Program-made: the position numbers and the translations under genes | The notes under the pieces: model-generated | Database searches by the model: none | What the model was told of the DNA's origin: nothing | The model's input: only the letters and a program-made list of their open reading frames with translations | Shown here: in pieces, positions 1-12,113 of the stretch | Numbering within the stretch: position 1 is the first letter of the stretch | Layout of the letters: each line of letters opens with the position of its first letter | NCBI GenBank assembly: GCA_964247135.1 | Contig: CAXTTL010000148.1 | Span: 1 to 12,113, forward strand | Direction: 5' to 3' | Length of the DNA stretch: 12,113 nt | Source of the DNA: an uncultured Deinococcales bacterium | Lineage (GTDB): Bacteria > Deinococcota > Deinococci > Deinococcales > JAAFIG01

Positions 1-159
1 TTTGAATGGATTGAAGTTTGGTACAAGCGCGAGTAGCCCGTCAGGTGCTTTCTTACGAGCAAGAACCGCGAACGTCGTCACTCGAGCCTGGGTTTCTTAG
101 CACCAACGGTGTTTGAGGAACGGAATGACTCTCGGAACTCCACATCCACAAACTCTTGA
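1..159 (+). pseudogene. IS3-family transposase OrfB C-terminal fragment, interrupted by a 39-bp in-frame insert containing a TAG stop
   Basis: TGG TAC [AAG CGC GAG TAG ... AGC AAG, 25-63] AAC CGC GAA CGT CGT CAC TCG AGC CTG. Removing 25-63 restores WYNRERRHSSL. Natural stop TGA at 157-159. Confidence 0.75.
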
Positions 160-166
160 CATTTCA
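1..166 (+). mobile_element. Right end of an IS3-family insertion sequence (transposase C-terminus plus right terminal inverted repeat), partial at window edge
   Basis: Frame +1 reads FEWIEVWY...NRERRHSSLGFLAPTVFEE, the typical C-terminal motif of IS3-family OrfB (YNxxRxHSSLGxxxPxxFE). It is followed by TCCACAAACTCTTGACATTTCA, ending in CA at 165-166 as IS3-family ends do (5'-TG...CA-3'). The adjacent minus-strand gene is cut at this point. Confidence 0.8.
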
Positions 167-270
167 CCCTGTTCCTTCAGCATGAATACAAAAGCTGCTA
201 AATCGGTATACCTCCAAATCTTCAGATTAGGGTCTTGAGATTCGGCAAATACTTCATGCTCTTCATACAT
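167..270 (-). pseudogene. 5' fragment of an IS-interrupted gene, probably DUF2971-like hypothetical protein
   Basis: Minus strand from ATG at 270 reads MYEEHEVFAESQDPNLKIWRYTDLAAFVFMLKEQG and then enters the IS end at 166. KIWRYxDxxxF resembles the N-terminus of DUF2971-type proteins (recognised from memory, not searched). The run-on ORF is 57 aa, shorter than anything in the ORF track. Confidence 0.6.
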
Positions 271-276
271 AAATAC

Positions 277-305
277 AATTTAAGCTTACAGGTGATTCAC
301 GTCAA
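277..305 (-). promoter_or_regulatory. Sigma70-type promoter, leaderless start of the interrupted gene
   Basis: Minus strand TTGACG (305-300), 17 nt, TAAATT (282-277), 6 nt, ATG (270). No Shine-Dalgarno. Confidence 0.6.
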
Positions 306-392
306 ATCGTTCATGATTCAAGCCCGAGCATTCAGCAATTCATCAGGAAAAAATGGTTTTAAACCGTGTCACGCGAGACTCACCAAAACAAT

Positions 393-434
393 CAAAAAAG
401 AAACTCGAGGTGCAAAAGCTTGCACCTCGAGTTT
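393..434 (-). terminator. Rho-independent terminator of the 443..1084 gene
   Basis: Perfect 15-bp stem AAACTCGAGGTGCAA (401-415) / TTGCACCTCGAGTTT (420-434) with a 4-nt loop, 8 nt past the stop, followed on the minus strand by CTTTTTTGA. Confidence 0.85.
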
Positions 435-442
435 GGATTGTT

Positions 443-1084
443 TTATTTATTGAGCAGTTGGAAGCCGTGATTGGATTTGGTCCAACCCGAGTTGAAACCG
501 ACCGTAATCCAGATCATGGCGAGCGGTTCGATCAAACGGCTTTTGGTCATGTCGCCCAGGTCCACCACGCCCCAACCGACACCCTCGAGAAAGTCTTGCA
601 CTGTTTTTTTGGCGTCTTTGTCGTTGCCAGCAATGAACATGTCGGGGTTGCCTCCAATAAACGTTTTTGGGTTGAGCATGGCGGGGGCGGTGATGATGTT
701 GAGGGCTTTGACCACAAATGAATCGGGCAGCCAGGCTTGAACCTGTTCGCCCGCCGAGGTGTTAAAACCAATCGAGAGCGCCGGTTGTCCGCTCGAGAAA
801 TCCAAGGGGTTGGTGATGTCCACCACGACCTTGCCGACCAGATTTTTGGGGTCGGCAAGATTAATGGCGTTTTGCGTACCGTCCCAATGGGTGGCGAGCA
901 GGATCATTTCACCAAATTTCGCGGCGTCGGCGTTGCTGGCAAGTTTCACGTCCTTGTTCTGGCTCGAGAATGCCTCCAGTTTGCTGGCGTCTCGGGTGCC
1001 GATGGTCACGTTGTGTCCGTGTTTGATCAGGTCGATGGCGAGTTGTTGACCGACGGCTCCGCTGCCAATAATTCCGATGTTCAT
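443..1084 (-). CDS. NADPH-dependent F420 reductase family / dinucleotide-binding oxidoreductase (COG2085-like)
   Basis: N-terminal Rossmann GIIGSGAVG and family motifs GKVVVDITNP, SAGEQVQAWLP, VVKALN, AGNDKDAK, DLG; 213 aa; SD AAGGAG upstream. Confidence 0.88.
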   Translation of the reverse strand: MNIGIIGSGAVGQQLAIDLIKHGHNVTIGTRDASKLEAFSSQNKDVKLASNADAAKFGEMILLATHWDGTQNAINLADPKNLVGKVVVDITNPLDFSSGQPALSIGFNTSAGEQVQAWLPDSFVVKALNIITAPAMLNPKTFIGGNPDMFIAGNDKDAKKTVQDFLEGVGWGVVDLGDMTKSRLIEPLAMIWITVGFNSGWTKSNHGFQLLNK

Positions 1085-1144
1085 GGGCTGCTCCTTGGGT
1101 TTGGCTCGGGTGTCTCTCGAGCGTAGAATCAGAATAAACTAGGG

Positions 1145-1195
1145 TAGACAGGTCTGTATGTTTCTTGGAGTACCAAAATAGACAGGTCTGTCTAT
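1145..1195. promoter_or_regulatory. Two TetR-type operators in a divergent promoter region
   Basis: ATAGACAG-GT-CTGTCTAT (1178-1195, perfect 8-2-8 inverted repeat) and a second copy TAGACAGGTCTGTA (1145-1158). The first abuts the -10 TAGAAT (1195-1200). Confidence 0.85.
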
Positions 1196-1207
1196 AGAAT
1201 GGGTGGT

Positions 1208-1780
1208 ATGGAAGTCAGCACCATCAGCAAACCCCGCGAACGCATCCTCGAGACGGCGGCGAAACTCTTTTACGCGAGCGGTTACAGGGCAATTGGAGTT
1301 GACCGTTTGATCGCAGAATCTGGCGTCGCCAAAATGACGTTTTACAAACACTTTCCCAGCAAAGACGATTTGATTGCAGCTTACCTCGAGCAGTCAAGCC
1401 AGAACTTCTGGAACTGGATTGATGCGATCACCCAAGATCAACCCGACCCAAGATGGCAACTCGAGCAGATTTTTGCCGCCATCGCAAACCGTTCCATCCA
1501 ACCCGCCTGCCTGGGCTGTGCCTTCATGGCTGCCGCGCTCGAGTTTCCAGATTTTGAACACCAAGCGCACAAGGTTGCACTTGCTTACAAGAACAGTGTG
1601 CTTGCCAAACTGACCGAACTTGCCGCAGCCAGCCGTGCTCGAGAACCCGAACTGCTGGGCGCAGGTCTGATGCTCTTGATGGACGGCGCGTGGAGTGCCG
1701 CCAGAATGTTTGGACCAGACAATCACGCCAAGCACGTGCTGGCTGCGGCTCAAGCCCTGATTGCCGCGCAAGTGAATTGA
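1208..1780 (+). CDS. TetR/AcrR family transcriptional regulator
   Basis: HTH RERILETAAKLFYASGYRAIGVDRLIAESGVAKMTFYKHFPSKDDL and C-terminal GCAF motif. Start moved from 1199 to ATG 1208 because TAGAAT-N7-ATG fits a leaderless transcript. Confidence 0.93.
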   Translation: MEVSTISKPRERILETAAKLFYASGYRAIGVDRLIAESGVAKMTFYKHFPSKDDLIAAYLEQSSQNFWNWIDAITQDQPDPRWQLEQIFAAIANRSIQPACLGCAFMAAALEFPDFEHQAHKVALAYKNSVLAKLTELAAASRAREPELLGAGLMLLMDGAWSAARMFGPDNHAKHVLAAAQALIAAQVN

Positions 1781-1947
1781 AGATGTATTGAATATCGAAG
1801 CTTCAACACAACATTGAAGCCCTGAGCGCACCAACCTCAGCCGCGCCTCAGTCTGGTGCCTGTATCACCTCAACCGAGCATGGTCATCTGACCTGGGCTT
1901 GTCTCATTCATCACAGAAATTCAACTGGGGCAAGTTAAGGAGCAATC

Positions 1948-2850
1948 ATGAATCCGAAAATCCTGAACCGCCGTCAATTGTTGCAGGGAGCCGCCCTCTT
2001 CGGAGCCGCAAGCCTCACCTCGGGTATCGGGCTGGCACAAACCGCAGCCACGACCACAGCAACAAAGCCCGACATCGACGTGGATGTGCTGAACTTCGCC
2101 CTCAACCTCGAGTACCTCGAAGCCGAATTTTACTTGGCGGCGGTGGGTCGCAAACCGAGTTACAAAACCTCCGGCATGGACTCGGGCATGGGTTCCAACG
2201 TGATCGGCGGCAAGAAAGTGAAATTCTCGAGCAGCGCCTTTGGTCGCGCCGTGCGCGAATACGCCGAAGAGATCGCCAACGACGAGGAAAACCACGTCAA
2301 ATTCTTGCGCGAGGCGCTCGGCGACAAAGCCGTCGCCCGTCCAACGATTGACATTGGACCGGCTTTCGCCGCCGCCGCTGCCGCCGCCAGCAAAAGTGCC
2401 ATCAAGGGTTTTGACCCTTATGCCAACGAATTGTTTTTCTTGCACGGTGCGTTCATTTTCGAGGACGTGGGCGTGACCGCCTACAAAGGCGCGGCACCAC
2501 TGATCACCAACCCAGCCTACCTCGAGGCGGCGGCGGGTATCTTGGGCGTTGAGGCTTACCACGCGGGCATTGTCCGCACGTTGTTGTATCAAAAGCGTTC
2601 GACCGTCGCTGCGGCTGGTCTTAGGGTTCATCAGGTGGTCGATGCGATCTCAGCCCTGCGCGATTCGGTGGACGGCACGGACGACCGCGACCAAGGCGTT
2701 TTGATCAACAACAGGGCAAACCTGGTGCCGACCGACGCCAACGGCATTGCGTTCAGCCGCACGACCAGCCAGGTGCTCAACATTGTGTACTTGGGCGGCA
2801 AGGGCAAGGGCGGCTTTTTTCCAAATGGTCTGAACGGTAAAATCAAGTAA
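1948..2850 (+). CDS. Tat-signal ferritin-like domain protein (Ferritin_2 / desiccation-related protein family)
   Basis: Twin-arginine signal LNRRQLL followed by a hydrophobic stretch ending GLA-Q. Family motifs DVDVLNFALNLEYLEAEFY, EIANDEENHVKFLR, FEDVGVTAYKGAA, ILGVEAYHAG and C-terminal GGFFPNGLNG. SD AAGGAG. Confidence 0.9.
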   Translation: MNPKILNRRQLLQGAALFGAASLTSGIGLAQTAATTTATKPDIDVDVLNFALNLEYLEAEFYLAAVGRKPSYKTSGMDSGMGSNVIGGKKVKFSSSAFGRAVREYAEEIANDEENHVKFLREALGDKAVARPTIDIGPAFAAAAAAASKSAIKGFDPYANELFFLHGAFIFEDVGVTAYKGAAPLITNPAYLEAAAGILGVEAYHAGIVRTLLYQKRSTVAAAGLRVHQVVDAISALRDSVDGTDDRDQGVLINNRANLVPTDANGIAFSRTTSQVLNIVYLGGKGKGGFFPNGLNGKIK

Positions 2851-2864
2851 ACCGCGAATTAAAC

Positions 2865-2918
2865 AAGCTCGAGCAGAACTCAAACGTTCAGCTCGGGCTT
2901 TAAACTTTAATTTTTTTG
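2865..2918 (+). terminator. Probable rho-independent terminator between convergent genes
   Basis: AAGCTCGAGC-A-GAAC / GTTC-A-GCTCGGGCTT stem (2865-2900, one G-U pair, one mismatch) followed by a T-rich tract TAAACTTTAATTTTTTT. Confidence 0.7.
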
Positions 2919-2957
2919 ACTGCAAATTCAAGCTCGAGTGACCAGTTTAAAAACCTG

Positions 2958-3326
2958 CTACTGAATCTCGAAGCCCAACTGCCCAGTCGAAGAATTGTTC
3001 TCGAGTTTTAAGTCCCAATTCCCAGCCGCAAGCGTGATCCCCTTGTCGATTCTGCCCAGCAGCACAGCCTTTTCGACGCCGTTGAGTTTGACGGTGGTGC
3101 GACCCTCGCGCAGTTCGCCGTAAAAGTGCAGCCTCGATTTGCGGGTCAAGGTGATATGACGCTCAAAACCCATGCGGGTGTCGTTCATGAACAGCGGCGT
3201 GTACGGTGGAAATCCCAGGTAAAAGCCCCCGTAAACGTTAAAAGTGGCAAAAACGAAATAACAGCACAGCGCCACGGCGACCAACGCCCACTGCCAGCGT
3301 TTGAGTTTGTAAGGCAAAAAAGACAC
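2958..3326 (-). CDS. Hypothetical protein with N-terminal membrane anchor and small beta-rich domain
   Basis: 122 aa ORF filling the gap; KLKRW followed by a hydrophobic helix; GTG start preceded by TAGAGT-N6 (3338-3333). Confidence 0.7.
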   Translation of the reverse strand: MSFLPYKLKRWQWALVAVALCCYFVFATFNVYGGFYLGFPPYTPLFMNDTRMGFERHITLTRKSRLHFYGELREGRTTVKLNGVEKAVLLGRIDKGITLAAGNWDLKLENNSSTGQLGFEIQ

Positions 3327-3484
3327 GGTTTCACTCTAGCTCGAGGGTTGCTGCAAAGTGTCCTTGAATCGCTTGCTCAAACGACCGTAAACGTTTGCGA
3401 ATATTGAACTCGAGTCTGAACAACCCGCTCGAGGTGCTTGAAGTACACCCTGAACGAATTGTTTCCTTGATATGATGCAGCCCA

Positions 3485-4237
3485 ATGGTGAAGGTGATTG
3501 CTATCGGGGATGTACATGCGGACTGGAGACACTTGTGGTCTGCCTTAAAAGCATCTTATGCAGCCACGCACGATGGCAAACCATCTCAGGTTGTGCTGGA
3601 CGGGCGTTACCGTGTGATCTTGATGGGTGATTTGGTGCATCCCAAAACCCAGGAGGCTTACGAAGAATTGACGGGGCGCGAGAATTACGATTGGCACGAC
3701 CCTGAGCACTTGCGCAGCGCCTCCAAAGCCCAGGCTCGGGAGTTGTACAAGATCAAAAATTTTGTCGATGAAGCCGAGGGCGGCGTCAGCATCATTCTGG
3801 GCAACCACGACGCGGCGGCGCTCGATCATAATTTTTTGCTGGGCACGGCGGTGGGTTTGACCCATGCCGAATTTGACGAATCCAAAGGCGGTTTGGCATT
3901 GCCCCAAGACCTGCAAGATTGGATGCGCACCTGGCAATCCGAGGTTCGGATTCACGGCGTGCAATTTGCCCACGCCGGACCAACCCCTGGCATGGCGTCC
4001 TACGATGATTTTTTTTACGGCGATCCCGACACCAAACGCTGGTGGGTTGATAAACCGTTCCTGGTGACCGCCAGCGGACACAAGTTTGGCGTCTACGGGC
4101 ATACGGTCATGAAAGACGGCATTCTGATCGACGAGGAAAACCATTTTGCCATGATCGACGCGCTCGAGAAACGCCAGTACTTGGACATGATGTTCCAAGA
4201 CGACGGCGAGTTTGCCTATCGCATCGCAGAATTTTAA
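3485..4237 (+). CDS. Calcineurin-like metallophosphoesterase
   Basis: Motifs IGDVHA, MGDLVH, LGNHD, FAHAG and YGHT in canonical order; TATGAT 8 nt upstream of ATG. Confidence 0.88.
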   Translation: MVKVIAIGDVHADWRHLWSALKASYAATHDGKPSQVVLDGRYRVILMGDLVHPKTQEAYEELTGRENYDWHDPEHLRSASKAQARELYKIKNFVDEAEGGVSIILGNHDAAALDHNFLLGTAVGLTHAEFDESKGGLALPQDLQDWMRTWQSEVRIHGVQFAHAGPTPGMASYDDFFYGDPDTKRWWVDKPFLVTASGHKFGVYGHTVMKDGILIDEENHFAMIDALEKRQYLDMMFQDDGEFAYRIAEF

Positions 4238-4263
4238 TGGGGCGAGACGCGTCTCGCCCCAAC
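4236..4263. repeat. REP-like 28-bp palindrome (perfect 24-bp core), may also act as a terminator or RNA stabiliser
   Basis: TGGGGCGAGACGCGTCTCGCCCCA (4238-4261) is a perfect palindrome. The minus strand reads GTTG-GGGCG-N10-CGCCC-CATT. Confidence 0.6.
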
Positions 4264-4280
4264 ACGGTAAACTGTTTGGC

Positions 4281-4592
4281 ATGAGGCTCGAGACGCTGCT
4301 GCCAATTGCGGGTTTGGGGTTGTACCTGGCAAACCTGGCGCTTGGGGTGGCGGTTCAGTTGCGTTACGTCAGTTTGCACAGAATGCGTTGGGTTCATCAT
4401 GCCCTGTATTTTGTGGTTTTTGTCGGTGCCATCTTGGCGGTGGTGGGCTTGATGATCGGGCGTTCAAAATGGTGGATGTTGACCCTGACCATCGGTGCGC
4501 TGGCGGTCTTGCCGCGTTACAAGGGCGGCACCAGACCGCACATGGTTCTGGCTGTGCTCGGTCTGGTGGGTTACGGACTTGCACTGTTTTAA
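4281..4592 (+). CDS. Small multi-pass membrane protein, unknown function
   Basis: About four hydrophobic segments with WVHHALYF and RPH motifs. Start placed at ATG 4281 (TAAACT-N7-ATG) rather than 4212, which overlaps the upstream gene and the palindrome. Confidence 0.75.
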   Translation: MRLETLLPIAGLGLYLANLALGVAVQLRYVSLHRMRWVHHALYFVVFVGAILAVVGLMIGRSKWWMLTLTIGALAVLPRYKGGTRPHMVLAVLGLVGYGLALF

Positions 4593-4633
4593 AAGGTTAG
4601 GCTCGAGGTATCCTGAAATTCCAAAGGACGTGT

Positions 4634-5422
4634 ATGGATTTTTTTGAGGTCATCAACAACCGAAAAACCACCAACGGACCGTTCGACCCGCGTCCTGTCA
4701 GCAAAGAACATCAACGAATCTTGATGGAGGCAGCCTCCCGAGCGCCGAGTCATTTTAATTCTCAACCGTGGCGTTTTATTTTGATCGAAGACACCAAAAA
4801 ACGCGCCGCAATTGCGGATTTGGCTGGTCGCAGCATGGAAAAACTGATTGCCGATGGTCTGTTTTTCGAGCGTTACCGCCCGTACTTTCGCTTTTCCGAA
4901 AAGGAACTCGAGGAGCGCGGCGACGGCATTCATTTTGACCAGTTGCCAGGACCGTTAAAACCATTTGCCAAACAGATCATGAGTCCAACCGGCGTCGAAA
5001 TCATGCGGCGCATGGGCGTACCCAAAATGCTCGGCAGGGACAACCGCGACCTGGTGGCGGGCAGCCCATTGATTATGGGCGTGATGCTCGACAAAGCCGA
5101 GTACATTCCAGGCAAATTAAGCGGCTTTTACTCGATTTTTGGCATGGGCGCGGCGATGGAAAACATCTGGCTGACCACCCACGCGCTGGGCATGGGCATT
5201 CAATTTATCAGCACGCCAATGGAAATTCCCGAAAACTGGCAACAGATGATTGCGCTTTTGGGCGTTCCCGATCACCTCGAGCTGATGGCGGTCTACAGAC
5301 TGGGTTACGTCAAAGAGGCGCAACGCCGCCCGAGCATCGACTGGTCGAGCCGTCACCGCAAACGACTGAGCCAGTACGTTTTCAGGGATTCGTGCGACAC
5401 GCCCGAAAGTGATGATTTGTGA
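4634..5422 (+). CDS. Nitroreductase family (FMN-binding) protein
   Basis: EVINNRKT...[49 protein letters not shown]. Confidence 0.9.
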
Positions 5423-6474
5423 ACCCGAAAATACTTGCTGTCGGAACTGCACTGCCAGAGCACCGCATCGAACAGCACAACATCCGCGAATTTGCCCGCA
5501 TACTTTTTGCCTCGAGCTTCAGGGACATTGACCGCTTGGTCACGATCTTCGAGAATTCGCAAATCAAAACCAGGGCGTTATGCACGGATTTGGCGTGGTT
5601 TGAAAGCCCCAAAAGTTTTAGTGAAAAAAATGCGCTCTACGTTCAACACGCCAGCAGTTTGAGTGAAGCCGCCGCGCTAGAAGCCTTAAAAAACGCAAAA
5701 CTCGAGCCTGCCCAAATTGACGCCATTATTTTTGTTTCGACCACAGGACTCTCCACGCCCAGCTTGGACACTGCCTTGATTAAGCGCCTGGGCTTGTCGC
5801 CACACGTCGCCAGAATGCCTTTGTGGGGTTTGGGCTGCGCGGGCGGCGCGGCGGGTCTGGCTCGAGCCTCCGAGTACGCCAGAGCCTTTCCAGGCAGGCG
5901 CGTGCTGCTGGTGGCGGTGGAACTGTGCAGCCTGACCTTTCAGCACAATGACCGCAGCAAATCGAACTTGGTGGCAACCAGTTTGTTTGCCGACGGTGCG
6001 GCAGCCGTGATCGTCAGCACCGAGGGCGACTCGAGAAGCCCCGAGCTTCTTGGCAGTTACAGTACCCTGATTCCAGATTCCGAAGACGTCATGGGTTGGG
6101 ATATCGTGGACGGCGGTTTGAAAGTCCGATTTGCCAAAAGCGTTCCCGATTTGGTGCGCAGCATCATGCGCCAAAACCTCTGCGAAGCCGCCAAAGCAAA
6201 CGGCATCAAACTCGAGCAAATTCAGCATTTTGTCACGCACCCTGGCGGCTTAAAAGTCTTGGAAGCCTACCAAGAATCCCTTCACCTCGAGAAAGATGCC
6301 TTAAAAGATGCCAGAAGCGTGCTCGAGAATTGCGGCAACATGAGCAGCGTCAGCGTGCTTTTTGTGCTCGAGAAATTTATGCAACGACGCTCGAGCCTCA
6401 ACCCTGGCGAGTACGGCGCGATCAGCGCGATGGGACCTGGCTTTAGTGCCGAACACGTGATTTTCAGGACGTGA
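5419..6474 (+). CDS. Type III polyketide synthase (chalcone-synthase-like; BpsA/SrsA type)
   Basis: Catalytic Cys-His-Asn in [12 protein letters not shown] and GNMSS; also [16 protein letters not shown] and MGPGF. GTG start overlaps the upstream stop (GTGA). Confidence 0.95.
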
Positions 6475-6926
6475 ACATGCCCAACCTTGTCACACAAATC
6501 CAAAGCATTCTCGAGCAAGAACTGGCACGTCATCACGACACGACCATCATGCAGGCTCGTGTGGCAGAGGCAATTTTTGGCTTTGCGGTGGACAATCCCA
6601 AAATTGAACAAGAACTGATACTCGAGGCGCTGGCGGTGCTCTCCGATCAGGGACGTGAGGCGATGCGCAATGCGGCAAGCGCCGCCAAACGAATTTTTTT
6701 AGAGAATGAAACGCTCGAAGTCTTAACCCGCGAACGGGTGCTCGAGCGGCGCAAACCCCAACGCGCCAGCGCCGTGCAACTGGCAAAAGAAAACGATTTG
6801 GAAGGACTGCGACGCATTGGTGCTCGAGCCTTGCAACTTGGGCTGCAAGCCGCCAAGCCAGACGTTGCCAAAGTGATGATTGAAGCTTGGGAACTTTTGA
6901 GCCAGTACGAACGTAGTCACACCTGA
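6471..6926 (+). CDS. Hypothetical, probably alpha-helical protein
   Basis: 151 aa ORF coupled to the PKS stop by a GTGA overlap (alternative ATG at 6477); Ala/Leu/Glu/Arg rich; no motif recognised. Confidence 0.7.
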   Translation: MNMPNLVTQIQSILEQELARHHDTTIMQARVAEAIFGFAVDNPKIEQELILEALAVLSDQGREAMRNAASAAKRIFLENETLEVLTRERVLERRKPQRASAVQLAKENDLEGLRRIGARALQLGLQAAKPDVAKVMIEAWELLSQYERSHT

Positions 6927-6990
6927 CAGAAGTCTTGCTAGACTGATAGTCGAAAACCAAAAGCCACGTTAGAACTCGAGAGGTGAAATC

Positions 6991-7545
6991 ATGAGCGCAC
7001 CCACCCCAAACCCCGTGCCAATTTCAGAAATGATCGATCAGAGCATCAAGGTCATCAGCAACCCGACAGTGCAAACTTTTGACACTTTTGAGAATCGCGG
7101 CACAATGCGCGACGCCCTGATTTACGTTGGTCTGGGCGCAATGGTTTCGGGTGCCCTCAGTTTCAGTGGCGGACTGGGCGGCATTTTAGGCGGTGCAATC
7201 TCGACGCTGGCATCATTTTTTGTATTTGTCTATGTGGTTCATGCCTTTGGAAAATCCCAAGGCGGCACCGGAACGCTCGATCAGGTGGCTTACACGTTTT
7301 CTTTATTTTGGATGCCACTCTCGATTCTGTCCGCCCTTGCCATTTTGATTTTGACCATCACGATTGTTGGCATTTTCTTAATCCCGCTTTTGCTGTTCGC
7401 CATTCTTGCCGCCAATATTTATTTTGCTTACACCGCCGTGCAATCCAGCATGAACCTGCCCAGAGGCTCGAACGCCATTGTGACTTTGGTGGTCGCCGCG
7501 ATTGCCACAATGGTCACTTACGGCATTATTGACACGATCATCTGA
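6991..7545 (+). CDS. YIP1 family membrane protein
   Basis: Short soluble N-terminus (KVISNPTVQTF), about five hydrophobic helices, GG.G loop (GKSQGGTGT); SD GAGGTG. Confidence 0.75.
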   Translation: MSAPTPNPVPISEMIDQSIKVISNPTVQTFDTFENRGTMRDALIYVGLGAMVSGALSFSGGLGGILGGAISTLASFFVFVYVVHAFGKSQGGTGTLDQVAYTFSLFWMPLSILSALAILILTITIVGIFLIPLLLFAILAANIYFAYTAVQSSMNLPRGSNAIVTLVVAAIATMVTYGIIDTII

Positions 7546-8072
7546 TGCTGTATTTGCTGGGTTTTGTCGCCGCCATCATCATTCAACGCCTGCTCGAGCT
7601 TCGCGTGGCAAAACGCAACCTCGAGTTTGCACTGGCAAATGGCGGGCAGGAATTCGCGCCCGATCATTACAAATTCATTGTGTTGCTTCACGTGTCCTGG
7701 ATCGTTTTCATGCTGCTCGAGGGAATTCTTCGCGGCTCGAGCTTGAGTGGTTTTTGGTGGTTGTGGCTTGGCATTTTTGTGCTCGCGCAACTCGGGCGTT
7801 ACTGGGCGATCACCAGCCTCGGCAAATACTGGAACACCAGAATTGTTATTATTCCCGGTGGCAATCTGGTCGCCAAAGGACCTTACAAGTATTTCAAACA
7901 CCCCAATTACATTGTGGTGGCGCTCGAGCTTTTTGTTGCGCCCATGATTTTTGGCTGCTGGGTGACGGCGGTTCTCTCGAGTTTGGTCAATGCGGCGTTG
8001 CTGCTGGGGGTGCGAATTCCGGCAGAAGAACGGGCGCTGGAGGAATACCGAAAAAGCATTCAAACTGTATAG
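7545..8072 (+). CDS. Isoprenylcysteine carboxyl methyltransferase (ICMT) family protein, BpsB/SrsB-like O-methyltransferase
   Basis: QRLLELRVAKRN, GGQE...HY...V.LH, RYWAITSLGKYWNTRI, GPYKYFKHPNY, RIPAEERAL; TGATG coupling to the YIP1 gene. Confidence 0.92.
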   Translation: MLYLLGFVAAIIIQRLLELRVAKRNLEFALANGGQEFAPDHYKFIVLLHVSWIVFMLLEGILRGSSLSGFWWLWLGIFVLAQLGRYWAITSLGKYWNTRIVIIPGGNLVAKGPYKYFKHPNYIVVALELFVAPMIFGCWVTAVLSSLVNAALLLGVRIPAEERALEEYRKSIQTV

Positions 8073-8082
8073 CTCGAGATTC

Positions 8083-9045
8083 TTACTTGAACTTCCCGCG
8101 TTCGGCAAGAATACACGCCAGCGCGATGCTGTTAAATTTGGTGCTCTCAGAATCGGCTCGAGAGGTCAGCACCATCGGCGCACTCGCCCCCATGATGATG
8201 CCTGCGACTTGGGCATCGCCAAAATAGACCAGGGTTTTGTAAAAGACATTGCCCACGTCTATGTTATCGACAATTAAAATATCGGCGTGCCCTGCCACGG
8301 GCGAAACGATGCCTTTGATGCGGGCGGCTTCCTCACTGACGGCGTTATCCAGCGCCAATGGTCCGTCGATCAGTGCGCCCTTGATCTGTCCGCGATCACC
8401 CATTTTTGAGATAATCGCGTCGTCCACGGCGGTGCTCATGTCGGGGTTGACCACTTCGATGGCGGCGAGCATGGCCACTTTGGGTTTTTCGAGTCCAAGT
8501 GCGTGCGCGAGTGCCACAGAATTTTGCACAATCTCAATTTTGGCTTTAAGATCGGGTTCGATGTTCATCGCGCCGTCGGACATCAAGAACAGACGATCAA
8601 ATTTCCCTTTGGCTTCAAACACCAGCACGTGCGACAAAAGCTTGCCCGTGCGCATTCCCCATTCTTTATTTAAAACCGCCCGCAAGACCGTGGCGGTGTC
8701 GAGAAGCCCCTTCATTAAAATTTCAGCTTTGCCGCTGGTGACGGCTTGCACCGCCAATTCGGCGGCTTGGGCGTGGTCTTTGGCGTTGACAATCTCGAGT
8801 TTGTTGGGATCGATGCCCAGTTCATGGCAAATCACCCGAATTTTGGCTTCGTCCCCGAACAAAATGGGCGTTATCATGCCCTCGAGCCTGGCGTTGTGAA
8901 TCGCGCCGAGCACGTGATCGTCTTCGGCGGCGGCGACCGCCACGCGTTTTGGTCCGCGCACCTGACCGATCAGTCGCGCCAAGGAGAGCAAACCGCGCAT
9001 GGAGCTGACGGCATCGATGTTGGTGAAATCCAGTGTTTCGGTCAT
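8083..9045 (-). CDS. ptb: Phosphate butyryltransferase (PTA/PTB family)
   Basis: VAVAAAEDDHVL, ILMKGLLDT, LLSHV, PKVAMLAAIEVVNP, DGPLALDNAVS, GNVFYK, LTSRADS; directly downstream of buk. Confidence 0.9.
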   Translation of the reverse strand: MTETLDFTNIDAVSSMRGLLSLARLIGQVRGPKRVAVAAAEDDHVLGAIHNARLEGMITPILFGDEAKIRVICHELGIDPNKLEIVNAKDHAQAAELAVQAVTSGKAEILMKGLLDTATVLRAVLNKEWGMRTGKLLSHVLVFEAKGKFDRLFLMSDGAMNIEPDLKAKIEIVQNSVALAHALGLEKPKVAMLAAIEVVNPDMSTAVDDAIISKMGDRGQIKGALIDGPLALDNAVSEEAARIKGIVSPVAGHADILIVDNIDVGNVFYKTLVYFGDAQVAGIIMGASAPMVLTSRADSESTKFNSIALACILAERGKFK

Positions 9046-9056
9046 GATTGGCTCCG

Positions 9057-10184
9057 TTAAATGGGAATTTGAAAGTCTAAAGCCGCCTCGAGGTTGTAAA
9101 GCACCCGTCCTGCGCCCTCAGCCAGGGCTTCCATCTCGAGTTCGCCTGGAATCACCACCACGGGCGCAATCCAACCCAGGCGCGTCTCGAGGCGCTGCAT
9201 CAAGCTGGTCCAATGGGCGGCGGTGCCAGTGAGCACGATGGCGTCTGGACGCCCTGGGCTGGCGGCGGCATACGCGCCAACATTTTTGGCGATTTGATGC
9301 ACGTAAGCGTTGATGGCTTCGCGCGTCGGCTGGTCTTGTACCGCACGGCTTTCAATCACTTTCAAATCGCTGGTGCCCAACATGCCCTGAAAACCACTTT
9401 GACGCCGCAATTGAAACTCGAGAATGTCGCGCGGCAGGCTGTACGCCAGATCGAGCAAACCCTCAATCGGCAAGGTCCCAGCCCGTTCGCTCGAGAATGG
9501 ACCCTCGTCGAGCAGAGCGCCCGTCGTGTCGATGGCGCGACCGTTTTGAAAACTGGTGACGCTCGAGCCTCCGCCCAAATGCGCGACCACGATGGTCGAA
9601 TCTTCAAAACGCTTGCCGATCTCAATGGCGGCGCGGCGTGCCACCGCCCTGGCGTTCAGCGCATGAAAACGACTGCGGCGGCTGAGGTACGGCACGCCCG
9701 TCACCCGAGCCTCGGGCAGCAGTTCGTCCACGGTGGGTGGGTCTACCAGATAGGCGGGAACGCCAAATAGTTCCGCCCACTCGAGCGCCAACCGCGCCCC
9801 GTAATTCGAGGCGTGAATGCCGTTTTTATGCAGCAAACTGTACTGCGCCAGTTGTTTGGTCACACGGTATGTTCCGGCGGCGCACGGTCCGAGCAAACCC
9901 GCCCGACAAGAAACCGCATCAGGTTTTGTCCATTCGGTGCTGGCTTGCTTGATAAAAGCCCGAATCGCCTCCATCGCATCGCTATCCAAACCCACCGGCG
10001 CGTCTAGGGCTGTTCCATCCAGCGACAGGGCGGCTGCACCGTGTTCAGAATCTCGGGCTTTGAGGGTCGAGTGTTGCAACTCGAGTTTTTCGACCACGGC
10101 GGTCACGCCCTTGTTGTTGGCGGTCACGGTTGCCAACCCAAGTTTGGTCGAGGTTGAGCCTGGGTTGAGGACGTAAACGATCAT
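9057..10184 (-). CDS. buk: Butyrate kinase (acetate/butyrate kinase family)
   Basis: LNPGSTSTK, HASNYG, VDPPTVDE, FHALN, HLGGG, EGPFSSERAG, PGELEMEALA; TATCCT-N7-ATG leaderless-type start. Confidence 0.88.
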   Translation of the reverse strand: MIVYVLNPGSTSTKLGLATVTANNKGVTAVVEKLELQHSTLKARDSEHGAAALSLDGTALDAPVGLDSDAMEAIRAFIKQASTEWTKPDAVSCRAGLLGPCAAGTYRVTKQLAQYSLLHKNGIHASNYGARLALEWAELFGVPAYLVDPPTVDELLPEARVTGVPYLSRRSRFHALNARAVARRAAIEIGKRFEDSTIVVAHLGGGSSVTSFQNGRAIDTTGALLDEGPFSSERAGTLPIEGLLDLAYSLPRDILEFQLRRQSGFQGMLGTSDLKVIESRAVQDQPTREAINAYVHQIAKNVGAYAAASPGRPDAIVLTGTAAHWTSLMQRLETRLGWIAPVVVIPGELEMEALAEGAGRVLYNLEAALDFQIPI

Positions 10185-10212
10185 TGCGCACAGGATAGCA
10201 TTTCGGTTACAC

Positions 10213-11304
10213 CTAAATTCTCGAGTAACGCCCCCCTGGCAGCTCGAGGATGACGTTTTTGAGTTTCAGCATCATCAAAATCGATTGCGCGGCGGGCATG
10301 GCTAAACCCGTCCGAAGCACAATGTCATCGACCAGCAGCGCATCGTCGAGCGCGGCATAAACCCTGGCTTCGTCTCCCTCGAGACTCGGGGCGGCGGACG
10401 GCGTGACCGAACCCCAGCGCATCTCCTCCAAAATGTCTGATACCGATTCGATCAAGACCGCGCCTTCTTTGATCAAACGGTTCGGTCCCTTGGAATTGCT
10501 CTCACCTGGGCGTCCTGGCATGGCAAAAACCGTGCGTCCAGCCTCGAGCGCGGCAACGGCGGTGATCAAACTGCCCGAATCCAGATCGCCCTCGATGACC
10601 ACCGTGCCGCTCGAGAGTCCGGCAATGATTCGGTTGCGGGCTGGGAAATTGTGCGCGGCGGGTCGGGTGCCAATCGGGTACGCCGACACCAAGGTCAGTT
10701 GATTGGCGAGGGCGCTGTTCTCGCTGGGGTAAATATGATCCACGCCGCTGCCCAGCACCCCGATGCTCCTGCCGCCCGCTTCAACGCTCGAGCGGTGCGC
10801 CTCGGTGTCAATCCCTCGAGCCAAGCCCGAAACCACGATCACCCCCGCCAACGCGAGTTCTCTGGCGAGTTTGGCGGTAAAGGCTTTGGCGTGAGGGCTA
10901 CACTTGCGCGTGCCGACAATGCCAATCGAGTGCGGGGTCACGCCGATCAGTTCCTCGAGCGCGGTGACATCGCCGCGCACCCACAGCACGGGCGGCGGAT
11001 CGTAAATGGCTTTCAGCGCCGCAGGATAATTTGCACTCGAGCTGGCAATCACTTGCACATCGAGTCTTAAAGCCCGTTCCAGTTCGGTGGTCGCCCGTTC
11101 CAAACTCTGGCTCGAGCCGATCCCCGCAATGCTTTTGGAATCCAGCCCTGGCACGTCGCGCAACTGCATCAGTTTTGTCTCGAGCACCGTTTGGGCGTTA
11201 GAAAAATGATCGAGCAAGGTTTTGATGCGCACCGGACCAAGTCCAGGAGTAAAATCGAGCGCCAACATCGCATGGGTTTCGGGGTCGTGAAGAAGTTGAG
11301 TCAT
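10213..11304 (-). CDS. dprA: DNA-processing protein DprA (Smf)
   Basis: N-terminal PGLGPVR helix-hairpin region, YPAALKAIYDPPPVLWVRG, IVGTR, VSGLARGIDTEAH, FPARNRIIAGLS, SGSLITA, GPNRLIKEGA and a C-terminal winged-helix region. Confidence 0.96.
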   Translation of the reverse strand: MTQLLHDPETHAMLALDFTPGLGPVRIKTLLDHFSNAQTVLETKLMQLRDVPGLDSKSIAGIGSSQSLERATTELERALRLDVQVIASSSANYPAALKAIYDPPPVLWVRGDVTALEELIGVTPHSIGIVGTRKCSPHAKAFTAKLARELALAGVIVVSGLARGIDTEAHRSSVEAGGRSIGVLGSGVDHIYPSENSALANQLTLVSAYPIGTRPAAHNFPARNRIIAGLSSGTVVIEGDLDSGSLITAVAALEAGRTVFAMPGRPGESNSKGPNRLIKEGAVLIESVSDILEEMRWGSVTPSAAPSLEGDEARVYAALDDALLVDDIVLRTGLAMPAAQSILMMLKLKNVILELPGGRYSRI

Positions 11305-11388
11305 GGTTGAGGCATCATCTTATGATGAATTGGTAAAACCAAGAGGTCAAAGCGCAAACGTACCAAATCCCAAAAAACTGAATTCGAG

Positions 11389-11416
11389 GCAAGGGCGCAT
11401 GTCCATGCGCCCCTAC
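11389..11416 (-). repeat. REP-like 28-bp palindrome overlapping the ABC permease stop codon
   Basis: Minus strand GTAG-GGGCGCATG-GA-CATGCGCCC-TTGC: a GTAG tetranucleotide followed by a GC-rich hairpin, the hallmark REP layout. Confidence 0.65.
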
Positions 11417-12113
11417 TCGTAACGAAACACCCTCGAACCGACCAGCAAAAACAAGAATCCAAAGCCGATCAAGATCAAGGTGCTGGGCAGAACACTCGAG
11501 AAATTTGCGCCGCGCAAAATCACGTCTTGCAGGGCGTTCATGCCCCAATATGTTGGAAGTATTTTGGCAAGGGTCTGCATCCAGACTGGGGTGACATCGA
11601 GTGGCCACCACAAACCGCCAAGCGCACTGGTGACAGTGACTGCCAGGGTGCTAAAGCTGGTTAACTGGGCTGAAGTGCGGGTCAGTGCGGCGGTCAGACC
11701 ACCGAAGCTTGACGCCATAAAACCAAACGCCAGCACGGGCGGCAAGAGCGCCGAAATGCTGCCCCAGTGCACACCCAACGCCAGGCTCGAGAAGGCGATC
11801 ATGGCAAAGAGTTGCAGAATCAGGATAAAGGCGTTGCCCAAAAGTTTTCCGAACATCACCGCGCCCCAGCCGACGGGTGCGGCAAAAAGTCGCGCCAGCG
11901 TGCCGCCGCTGCGTTCGCGTTGCAACGCCAAGCCGGTTTGCGCCCCGAACAGCAAGGCAAACATTAAGGTCATGCCTGGTGCGGTCTGGCTCGAGCCGCT
12001 GGCTTCGGCGGTGCTGGAGCTGGCGTTCGCCAAAATTTGTTCGACGTTGACTTCAAATAGGTTGTCGTTCAACAGACCGCTGGCTCTTTTGGCGGCATCC
12101 GTTTGCACCGTCT
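11413..12113 (-). CDS. ABC-2 type transporter permease, 3' portion (5' end outside window)
   Basis: ERSGGTLARLFAAPV, GKLLG, LGGLWWPLDVTPVWMQTLAKILPTYW and several TM helices; the frame stays open to the window edge. Confidence 0.92.
   Translation of the reverse strand, partial: TVQTDAAKRASGLLNDNLFEVNVEQILANASSSTAEASGSSQTAPGMTLMFALLFGAQTGLALQRERSGGTLARLFAAPVGWGAVMFGKLLGNAFILILQLFAMIAFSSLALGVHWGSISALLPPVLAFGFMASSFGGLTAALTRTSAQLTSFSTLAVTVTSALGGLWWPLDVTPVWMQTLAKILPTYWGMNALQDVILRGANFSSVLPSTLILIGFGFLFLLVGSRVFRYE

Follow-up and report, generated by a model that had tools for sequence, protein, structure and literature searches.

Genomes of one family of uncultured Deinococcales carry the hexamer CTCGAG as a highly iterated palindrome (HIP), and among related species this motif is lost more slowly and gained faster than control hexamers. 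We analyzed a stretch of 12,113 nucleotides on contig CAXTTL010000148.1 (C148) of assembly GCA_964247135.1, from an uncultured Deinococcales bacterium, referred to here as the window. It contains exactly 72 copies of CTCGAG between positions 81 and 11995; in 200 dinucleotide-preserving shuffles the mean was 2.29 (standard deviation 1.49, maximum 7) and none attained 72. The original prediction for this stretch had counted about 72 sites, at the same places, against 3-4 expected, and had proposed a HIP-like system outside the cyanobacteria. That proposal is now upheld on a wider basis, as the motif is lineage-wide, occupies all reading frames as well as spacers, is conserved past codon constraint, and is the sequence on which substitutions converge. 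We conclude that CTCGAG is a HIP-like iterated palindrome held in place by an ongoing directional force acting at the level of DNA.

Abundance of CTCGAG in genes, spacers and proteins

The genome to which the window belongs (G000) comprises 386 contigs and 5,091,702 bases with a G+C content (GC) of 52.7%, an estimated completeness of 84% and a longest contig of 116 kb. CTCGAG is its top-ranked hexamer by count, with 33,925 copies, or 1 per 150 bp (6.7 per kb), occupying ~4% of bases. Observed copies divided by expected copies (O/E) give 24.8 under a model of order 0, 35.2 under order 1 (dinucleotide) and 14.4 under order 2 (trinucleotide), values that place CTCGAG among the HIPs as defined by palindrome over-representation of more than ~15-fold (sensu Elhai 2015; Xu et al. 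2018). A fourth-order model leaves a residual of 1.24, which means little because that model already includes the pentamers CTCGA and TCGAG. The enrichment is genome-wide and not confined to the window, with 2.6-11.3 sites per kb on each contig longer than 3 kb.

The unit of iteration is the exact full hexamer. Its flanks are near random, except for a G at position -1 in 39% of copies, and the most frequent octamer form is GCTCGAGC (4,225 copies). Of the TCGA in the genome, 62% lies within CTCGAG, as does 80% of the CTNNAG, and the remaining TCGA has an O/E of 1.12. One-off deviants number 9,573, 8,267 and 4,572 for changes at positions 1/6, 2/5 and 3/4, respectively, a gradient from outer to inner positions that is weaker than the one described for HIP1. 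Per mutational path, CTCGAG exceeds each one-off variant by 14- to 49-fold (natural logarithm 2.7-3.9), equivalent to a weak bias per site (natural logarithm ~3); the exception is CTAGAG, which holds the purged tetramer CTAG and is ~300-fold less frequent per path (natural logarithm 5.7). An earlier remark that one-off variants retaining TCGA are also common fails, because these variants lie near expectation, at only ~1.0-1.6 times composition (order-0 expectation ~2,740 each). TaqI-like methylation of TCGA was considered as a driver and dropped, given that TCGA outside CTCGAG stands at expectation and that TTCGAA and GTCGAC are purged.

A motif of this kind could be a by-product of codon or dipeptide usage, or an artefact of assembly or binning. 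CTC and GAG are common codons, Leu-Glu accounts for 54% of the sites, and a 2- to 6-fold excess of the hexamer in high-GC relatives may be partly codon-driven. Genes were called with our own open reading frame (ORF) and codon-score caller, which returned 4,698 genes covering 87.5% of the sequence. Coding CTCGAG numbers 29,262, against 4,072 (standard deviation 56, 10 shuffles) when synonymous codons are shuffled within genes and 1,725 when whole codons are permuted, so that a 7.2-fold excess persists over the synonymous shuffles. The excess extends to every frame, with 18,291 sites against 3,182 in the frame CTC GAG (5.7-fold), 4,313 against 304 in xCT CGA Gxx (14-fold) and 6,658 against 587 in xxC TCG AGx (11-fold). 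These tests are conservative, because the codon frequencies they retain are themselves inflated by the motif. Spacers are denser still than genes, at 7.28 versus 6.57 sites per kb. The window had already suggested as much: the eleven sites described there as intergenic all lie outside gene calls, in ~1.2 kb of spacer, and the frames previously assigned to individual sites agree with the ORF coordinates at every site named. The argument that Leu-Glu codon usage is insufficient to account for the motif is likewise borne out by the three frames and the spacers.

CTCGAG has in turn left its mark on the proteome, in which no dipeptide is as inflated as Leu-Glu (23,833 versus 10,195 expected, O/E 2.34), with values of 1.01 for Glu-Leu and 1.61 for Ser-Ser, and 76.7% of Leu-Glu dipeptides are encoded by CTCGAG. 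The codon CTC makes up 24.5% of Leu codons overall and 15.0% of those in which the following residue is not Glu; therefore codon use is driven by the motif instead of driving it.

Conservation, gain and loss among related genomes

The genus of G000 is represented by six species lying ~13% apart in a near star, with terminal branches of 0.08-0.10 and one inner branch of 0.010-0.016 on each side of the midpoint root. Between G000 and its relative G005 (399 kb of G005 aligned, 283,785 columns, 85.9% identity), 1,583 of 1,997 CTCGAG are kept (79.3%), compared with 46.7% of all hexamers (median 45.9%, 95th percentile 60.6%), and CTCGAG ranks second in conservation among 2,826 hexamers. Retention reaches 80.4% for coding sites and 67.6% (119/176) for intergenic sites, and amounts to 82.7%, 66.9% and 81.7% in the separate frames. 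Third codon positions are 90.1% identical within sites and 72.2% outside them, and intergenic bases are 91.1% identical within sites versus 82.9%. Differences at sites in the frame CTC GAG comprise 105 synonymous changes and 95 that change the amino acid sequence. What is conserved is the DNA word and not the residue pair. Alignments of the window with five genomes of the same genus allowed 57 sites to be seen in at least four genomes, of which 27 are present in all, 11 are lost in a single genome, 5 are gained in a single genome and 14 are mixed. Similar tests were used to show the conservation of HIP1, according to the available text of Xu et al.

The direction of turnover was obtained from a triple alignment of G000, G005 and G004 (1.18 Mb of G005 and 349 kb of G004; 84,633 hexamer windows). 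All three genomes have 425 sites in common. Losses number 42 in G000 and 77 in G005 (119 in total) and gains 60 and 28 (88 in total), with 87 and 44 further sites not polarisable. Of 969 CTCGAG on which the two references agree, 850 are retained (87.7%), versus 68.1% for all hexamers and 67.2% for hexamers of the same composition. The 179 other permutations of the six letters served as controls for the rate of gain. From sequences one change away, 9 of 228 became CTCGAG (rate 3.95e-2, control mean 1.31e-2, ~3.0 gains expected, rank 3 of 180); from two changes away, 9 of 2,087 (4.31e-3, control mean 4.13e-4, ~0.86 expected, rank 1 of 180); and from three changes away, 5 of 10,171 (4.92e-4, control mean 2.72e-5, ~0.28 expected, rank 1 of 180). 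Substitutions in these relatives thus converge on CTCGAG, which is gained 3- to 18-fold faster than hexamers of the same composition. Ongoing gain of this kind argues against a relic whose cause has since disappeared. The direction of this turnover is clear and its fold values are rough, because the counts are small and ancestral states come from two references. Imported recombination blocks and hypervariable DNA were considered as sources of the multi-change gains and dropped: the flanks of these gains diverge by 6.4-8.6%, against a background of 6.8%, so that the gains are not hypervariable spots, nor are they obviously blocks of imported DNA.

Distribution across the order and along the genome

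Whole-genome counts were made for 41 genomes, including the 19 of the Deinococcales family of G000 (five genera, genomes 57-94% complete). CTCGAG is abundant in all 19, with 12,028-35,442 sites or 4.3-6.8 per kb over a GC range of 46-61%. Three other families of the order hold 1,966-7,001 copies (~0.9-2.9 per kb), and six Deinococcus-like genomes (genus g7) hold 128-942 (0.03-0.27 per kb). Loci of DprA relatives show the same split, with 5.5-6.6 sites per kb in uncultured Deinococcales and 0 and 0.36 at two Deinococcus loci. The excess is independent of GC, the O/E in sampled stretches being 31 at 45.9% GC (G009), 22 at 54% (G005) and 13.8 at 60.6% (G011, a single-contig assembly). Beyond the 18 other family genomes, all independently assembled, parts of the window also appear, with 0-1 differences, on short contigs from three public freshwater runs, site-bearing parts included (e.g. 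5755-5905 and 4492-4740). These matches involve contigs only and small shares (0.05-0.14); none of the 40 differences listed falls inside a CTCGAG, where 1.4 would be expected, an uninformative outcome. Given 19 separate assemblies and exact pieces in unrelated public runs, an artefact is excluded, and together with the shuffles, the densest sites being in spacers and the scarcity of CTC before residues other than Glu, codon use is refuted as the cause as well.

Sister lineages carry variants of the motif with fixed flanks. In one genome of a sister family (G027; L440), 2,645 of 3,131 CTCGAG (84%) lie within GCTCGAGC. In G022 (L441), G026 and G038 (L442), 1,768-1,822 of 1,966-2,203 CTCGAG (83-90%) lie within CCTCGAGG, with GCTCGAGC down to just 5-19 copies. 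Of the remaining flank contexts of CTCGAG, nearly all are missing from these four genomes. Because these octamer variants dominate in the sister lineages, the order holds a set of CTCGAG-centered iterated palindromes, of which the family of G000 is the extreme case, tolerating any flank.

Along the genome of G000 the spacing of CTCGAG is near Poisson (coefficient of variation 0.96), with a ratio of variance to mean of 0.91 at 500 bp and 1.88 at 5 kb. Genes show an even density of 6.3-7.3 per kb along their length, and over the first 50 bp past stop codons it climbs to 10-11 per kb. Because density is flat along genes and spacing near Poisson, the motif has no gene-level role. A total of 166 intergenic hairpins have CTCGAG in both arms, mostly at the 3' ends of genes, and 57 of these (34%) lie between convergent genes, compared with 16% of all spacers. 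One reading of such a lawn of sites is that they bind an abundant nucleoid or chromosome-organizing protein, with selection keeping a dense and even cover for the compaction, segregation or repair of a fragmented chromosome. To our knowledge, nucleoid proteins seldom require an exact 6-bp palindrome. The cover is indeed uniform, with only 31 of the 3,078 genes that reach 600 bp lacking any site and with slight evenness at 500 bp, and sites are conserved in all frames and spacers. HIP1 periodicity has also been linked to chromosome structure (PMC5861425, available text). Against a nucleoid role stand the otherwise Poisson-like spacing, with over-dispersion above 1 kb, and the lack of a candidate protein in our search. 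We consider the nucleoid explanation improbable.

The longest gaps between sites are islands of 27-40% GC, and genes below 40% GC hold 1.45 sites per kb, versus 6.6-7.4 for genes of at least 50% GC. As sites are lost more slowly and arise faster than other hexamers, resident DNA is saturated with CTCGAG and recent low-GC arrivals are not. The longest site-free stretches (1.7-2.6 kb, 27-33% GC) are C13:11899-14536, C70:14174-16418, C13:4764-6745, C20:7992-9673 and C1:102567-104482, and probably arrived recently from a foreign source. At C189:4856-5653, a gene for a 265-aa N6_N4 methyltransferase is devoid of CTCGAG; it adjoins a gene of 38% GC on an otherwise normal contig and is probably a recently acquired restriction-modification module. 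A protein of 1,499 aa with Eco57I and N6_Mtase matches (C112:1671-6167) lies on a contig of many small genes with 3.55 sites per kb, which resembles a partly ameliorated prophage or other mobile element. The density of the motif could serve as a clock for the residence time of DNA.

Such a pattern is also what a self-marker for a nuclease or defense system would leave, through Chi-like protection or a density signal of self versus non-self, with CTCGAG-poor DNA degraded and with sites accumulating in resident DNA and successful phages. The motif-free low-GC islands, the intermediate density of the phage-like contig and the heavy restriction pressure on the lineage, in which many palindromes are purged, are compatible with this. 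Among the IMG/VR matches listed (at least 120 loci), the motif reaches 4-6 per kb (O/E 12-18) in some viral contigs with a GC of 56-72%, at loci L406, L323, L418, L385, L405, L391 and L400. L406, from a 110-kb contig, and L323 have no GAGCTC, like the family of G000. Most of the other CTCGAG-rich viral contigs among the matches listed are 64-72% GC and carry many GAGCTC, and they therefore probably belong to other, high-GC hosts, which counts against a self-marker. Chi sites are moreover asymmetric, skewed in orientation and enriched just a few-fold. No nuclease candidate emerged, though no search was directed at one. On balance a self-marker for defense appears very unlikely.

Within the window, the hairpin with sites in both arms (Table 1) folds with -25.0 and -24.4 kcal/mol (z -6.8 and -7.1), and none of 200 shuffles is equally stable. 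It looks like the terminator of an oxidoreductase gene ending at 443, because a run of U follows it on the minus strand.

Table 1. Coordinates of CTCGAG sites and associated features in the window, and of restriction-modification loci elsewhere in G000
Feature	Position	Strand	Remarks
Dispersed CTCGAG array, 72 sites	81..11995		mean spacing ~165 bp; no larger surrounding repeat unit
Perfect hairpin, 15-bp stem	401..434		CTCGAG in each arm (404, 426); minus-strand U run after it
CTC GAG site (Leu-Glu)	1247..1252	+	in TetR-family gene 1199-1780
CTC GAG site	1385		in TetR-family gene
xCT CGA Gxx site (Ala-Arg-Glu)	1638..1643	+	in TetR-family gene 1199-1780
xxC TCG AGx site (Phe-Ser-Ser)	2226..2231	+	in ferritin-like gene 1948-2850
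Imperfect hairpin after ferritin-like gene	2865..2900	+	CTCGAG (2868) in one arm, one-off CTCGGG (2892) in the other; -21 kcal/mol, z -6.5
Three intergenic sites (3340, 3409, 3428)	3340..3433		155-bp spacer between divergent genes
xxC TCG AGx site	5511		matches ORF coordinates
xCT CGA Gxx sites	5861, 6823		match ORF coordinates
Stretch aligned with five same-genus genomes	8083..12107		scored with 2959-8078 for site conservation, losses and gains
Restriction-modification locus	C320:1064-2985		
Restriction-modification locus	C14:36040-37933		
Restriction-modification locus	C178:2933-4752		
Restriction-modification locus	C207:3-1647		

The genes at 4634-6926 and 8083-11304 of the window include one operon-like run, consisting of a nitroreductase, a type III polyketide synthase and an ORF of 151 aa that matches no Pfam family; a phosphate acetyl/butyryl transferase with an acetate/butyrate kinase, and dprA, are also present. 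Positions 1-166 recur at 85-95% identity, at many contig ends or close to them, in G000 (C14 and C65), G001, G002, G003 and G005; the first 55 bases are 100% identical on C65, and contigs from public runs pile up and diverge at 1-166. The assemblies are probably broken here by an insertion sequence, of which this segment would be the end.

Candidate agents and comparison with known motifs

Several palindromes are nearly absent from G000, namely GAGCTC (0 copies), GGGCCC (1), CGGCCG (3), AGGCCT (4), CGTACG (5), GGATCC (7) and CCGCGG (11), and the tetramers GGCC and CTAG have O/E values of 0.02 and 0.07. The genome encodes a D12 methyltransferase paired with a SacI-like endonuclease, C5 methyltransferases paired with NgoPII-like and Eco29kI-like endonucleases, and a beta-class methyltransferase paired with a NotI-like endonuclease. 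Further enzymes are two MmeI-like proteins, a type I system, the 1,499-aa enzyme on the phage-like contig and three unassigned beta-class genes. The sites implied by the family names of these restriction-modification systems are the purged ones, and the systems therefore explain avoidance and not enrichment. GAGCTC has 0-25 copies in most genomes of the family and 568 in G008, where the SacI-linked type of methyltransferase was not found.

The original prediction had inferred a mechanism that creates or preserves CTCGAG, for instance a methyltransferase with biased repair, a site for a nucleoid-organizing protein, or a signal for uptake or recombination. Its first part, directional maintenance, is supported by the turnover described above; the methyltransferase part is not. 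No methyltransferase orthogroup spans the family across seven Pfam families (including PF00145, PF01555, PF02086, PF02384, PF07669 and PF05063), in a search limited by specificity being unreadable from sequence, by the possibility that non-orthologous enzymes share a site, and by genome completeness of 57-94%. Genes for C5 enzymes (PF00145) are absent from G008 and elsewhere non-orthologous, and PF01555 is absent from G011, the single-contig genome, and from G015. Several individual candidates were rejected. Matches of ~500 aa to PF07669 proved to be assorted type I HsdM proteins, 23-55% identical, and in G000 they resemble nothing except its own type I gene. An orphan D12 enzyme occurs in only 8 of the 19 family genomes plus G019, MT-A70 in G011 only (1 of 5 genomes), a 349-aa N6_N4 methyltransferase beside alaS of G000 in 6 of 41 genomes, and a 466-aa enzyme on C4 of G000 in 7 of 41, with stop codons in two. 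The repair endonuclease Vsr (PF03852) gave no match in G000, which is 84% complete.

A dedicated enzyme of the XhoI or PaeR7I type was likewise not recovered in the family. The XhoI endonuclease family (PF04555) is found in 0 of its 19 genomes versus 7 of 364 genomes of the phylum, and tblastn with four XhoI-family or partner proteins gave no match in G000. Partner methyltransferases of PF04555 are beta-class (N6_N4) in G021, G167 and G185 and gamma-class (Eco57I/TaqI_C) in G031. Close homologs of the XhoI-linked methyltransferases, at 63-72% identity, occur in G033, G027, G022 and G038, whereas the best matches in the family of G000 reach just 33-47% over short stretches. The suggestion of an orphan XhoI-like methyltransferase thus found no close homolog to rest on. 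In G027, G022 and G038 the beta methyltransferase is accompanied by a divergent XhoI-like partner ORF.

These data bear on methyltransferase-linked biased repair, the HIP model of Elhai, in which a methyltransferase for CTCGAG or TCGA would mark the site and methylation-guided mismatch or very-short-patch repair would convert near-cognates and restore mutants. Cyanobacterial HIPs co-occur with methyltransferases for the motif or its core (PMC4390886, available text), XhoI-type systems with beta- or gamma-class partners exist in the phylum, and G027 combines an XhoI-linked enzyme and its divergent partner with a preponderance of GCTCGAGC, which has the layout "G + site + C" of HIP1. The preference for G at -1 in G000 and the excess of outer over inner deviants fit the same model, and CTCGAG is among the methylated motifs of hot-spring genomes and phages in a 2026 preprint (bioRxiv 10.64898/2026.06.24.734251), the available text of which does not address abundance. 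On the other side stand the lack of a family-spanning orthogroup among the C5, PF01555, PF07669, D12 and MT-A70 enzymes and the two unassigned enzymes of G000, the pairing of the other methyltransferases of G000 with endonucleases whose sites are purged, the distribution of XhoI-type proteins and the result for Vsr. Losses by C-to-T change are no rarer than those by T-to-C, and G022 and G038 have the methyltransferase yet almost no GCTCGAGC. Gains are moreover accelerated at two to three changes from the motif, which is not expected from repair acting on near-cognate mismatches alone. We therefore regard repair guided by a methyltransferase as rather unlikely in the family of G000.

The explanation that we favor is a weak, genome-wide and still-active directional force that holds CTCGAG at ~1 per 150 bp, with sites lost more slowly and arising faster than matched hexamers. 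Because the exact full hexamer is the unit, the agent may be a protein of type-II-like six-base specificity. A putative uptake, recombination or repair protein that reads CTCGAG would favor site-bearing DNA, and molecular drive could then spread the motif as a self or kin-DNA mark, in the way modeled for uptake sequences and proposed for HIP1; a single conserved orphan methyltransferase would not be required. The 166 two-arm intergenic hairpins and the dprA gene of the window provide a parallel to uptake sequences. Taken as a whole, from the family-wide DNA-level palindrome and its weak active force to a reader that spreads a kin-DNA mark, we hold this statement tentatively and stop short of calling it probable.

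Several observations weigh against it. No CTCGAG-reading protein was identified, and the agent is for that reason hypothetical. DprA is also encoded in Deinococcus genomes without the motif, so that competence genes do not discriminate, and we know of no sequence preference in DNA uptake by Thermus or Deinococcus. Known uptake sequences are 9-12 nt, non-palindromic and about ten times rarer, and sites in terminator hairpins make up only ~7% of intergenic sites. Conservation and biased gain would look alike under selection and under biased conversion or repair. Gains are few (9, 9 and 5), many of the multi-step ones are synonymous Leu-Glu recodings that evolve fast anyway, and the ancestral states in this star-like genus are read from two reference genomes. 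A methyltransferase specific to CTCGAG could also have escaped notice, either as a set of non-orthologous enzymes or within the 6-43% of the genomes that is unassembled.

CTCGAG is likely the counterpart, in a second phylum, of cyanobacterial HIP1. Like HIP1 (GCGATCGC) and the alternate cyanobacterial HIPs, it is a short GC-rich palindrome in the class of 15- to 300-fold over-representation, found in all reading frames and in non-coding DNA, distributed clade-wide, conserved between genomes past codon constraint and above controls, and with deviants that favor outer positions. As in HIPs there are lineage-specific variants, here CTCGAG, GCTCGAGC and CCTCGAGG in different families; GCTCGAGC has the layout "G + methylase site + C" predicted by the model of Elhai, and CCTCGAGG does not (PMC4390886, available text). 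Unlike HIP1, CTCGAG has another sequence, six bases instead of eight, and a different phylum. The HIP1 core CGATCG has 47 copies in G000 (O/E 0.03), and CTCGAG is therefore not HIP1 in another guise. Its density of 1 per 150 bp compares with up to 1 per 350 bp for HIP1 (PMC5861425, available text), and no co-extensive methyltransferase was found in the family, whereas HIPs usually have one according to the available text of PMC4390886. The same text places HIPs in cyanobacteria only and mentions neither CTCGAG nor Deinococcus. HIP1 has been proposed to be a methylation-dependent transformation watermark and is reported to raise transformation efficiency (PMC13756078; bioRxiv 2024.09.10.611283; available texts). 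We found no prior report of CTCGAG hyper-abundance in the full-text literature, a coverage that excludes supplements and subscription journals.

Other systems offer partial parallels. The uptake signal sequences (USS) of Pasteurellaceae and the DNA uptake sequences (DUS) of Neisseriaceae are also over-represented short motifs shared within a family, tolerated at weakly constrained coding positions, frequently paired in terminator hairpins, sparse in foreign DNA, and open to explanation by molecular drive with a small per-site bias. USS and DUS are 9-12 nt long, asymmetric, present about once per kb and linked to a known receptor or a demonstrated uptake bias; CTCGAG is a 6-bp palindrome at 6.7 per kb, ~seven times denser, with near-random flanks, and is known here from sequence alone. 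The excess of CCWGG attributed to Dcm/Vsr in E. coli stands for the textbook route by which sequence-specific repair can enrich its own methylation site, but that excess is small, and in our case there is no Vsr found in G000, no family-wide C5 enzyme and no deficit of C-to-T losses. The restriction-modification systems XhoI and PaeR7I have the same recognition sequence and occur in sister families, yet restriction sites are normally avoided, and the endonuclease is absent from the 19 genomes of the family. Chi, like CTCGAG, is short and over-represented in core DNA, and it labels DNA as self for a processing machine, a role that CTCGAG would share; Chi differs in being asymmetric, strand-skewed and few-fold enriched. 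A palindrome carries no orientation.

A broader formulation covers the whole order. Deinococcales in the wide sense of GTDB would carry its own CTCGAG-centered palindromes, independent of cyanobacterial HIP1 and with lineage-specific flanks (bare, GCTCGAGC or CCTCGAGG); in the family of G000 the motif would be kept without a dedicated methyltransferase as a kin-DNA watermark, read by a putative hexamer-specific uptake, recombination or repair protein, with an effect strong enough to produce the 2.3-fold excess of Leu-Glu. In its entirety this formulation is doubtful.

HIP1 has gone unexplained for thirty years, partly because it was thought to be confined to cyanobacteria. An independent and denser iterated palindrome in a second phylum allows comparative tests of what such motifs need, for which sister lineages with octamer variants, sister lineages with XhoI-type systems and motif-free Deinococcus are all useful. 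If no methyltransferase is involved, the leading model of HIP origin needs revision. For these genomes, XhoI would yield pieces of ~150 bp unless the sites are modified, and CTCGAG provides a strong compositional signature for binning and for the detection of foreign DNA, while also biasing the composition of the proteins that the family encodes.

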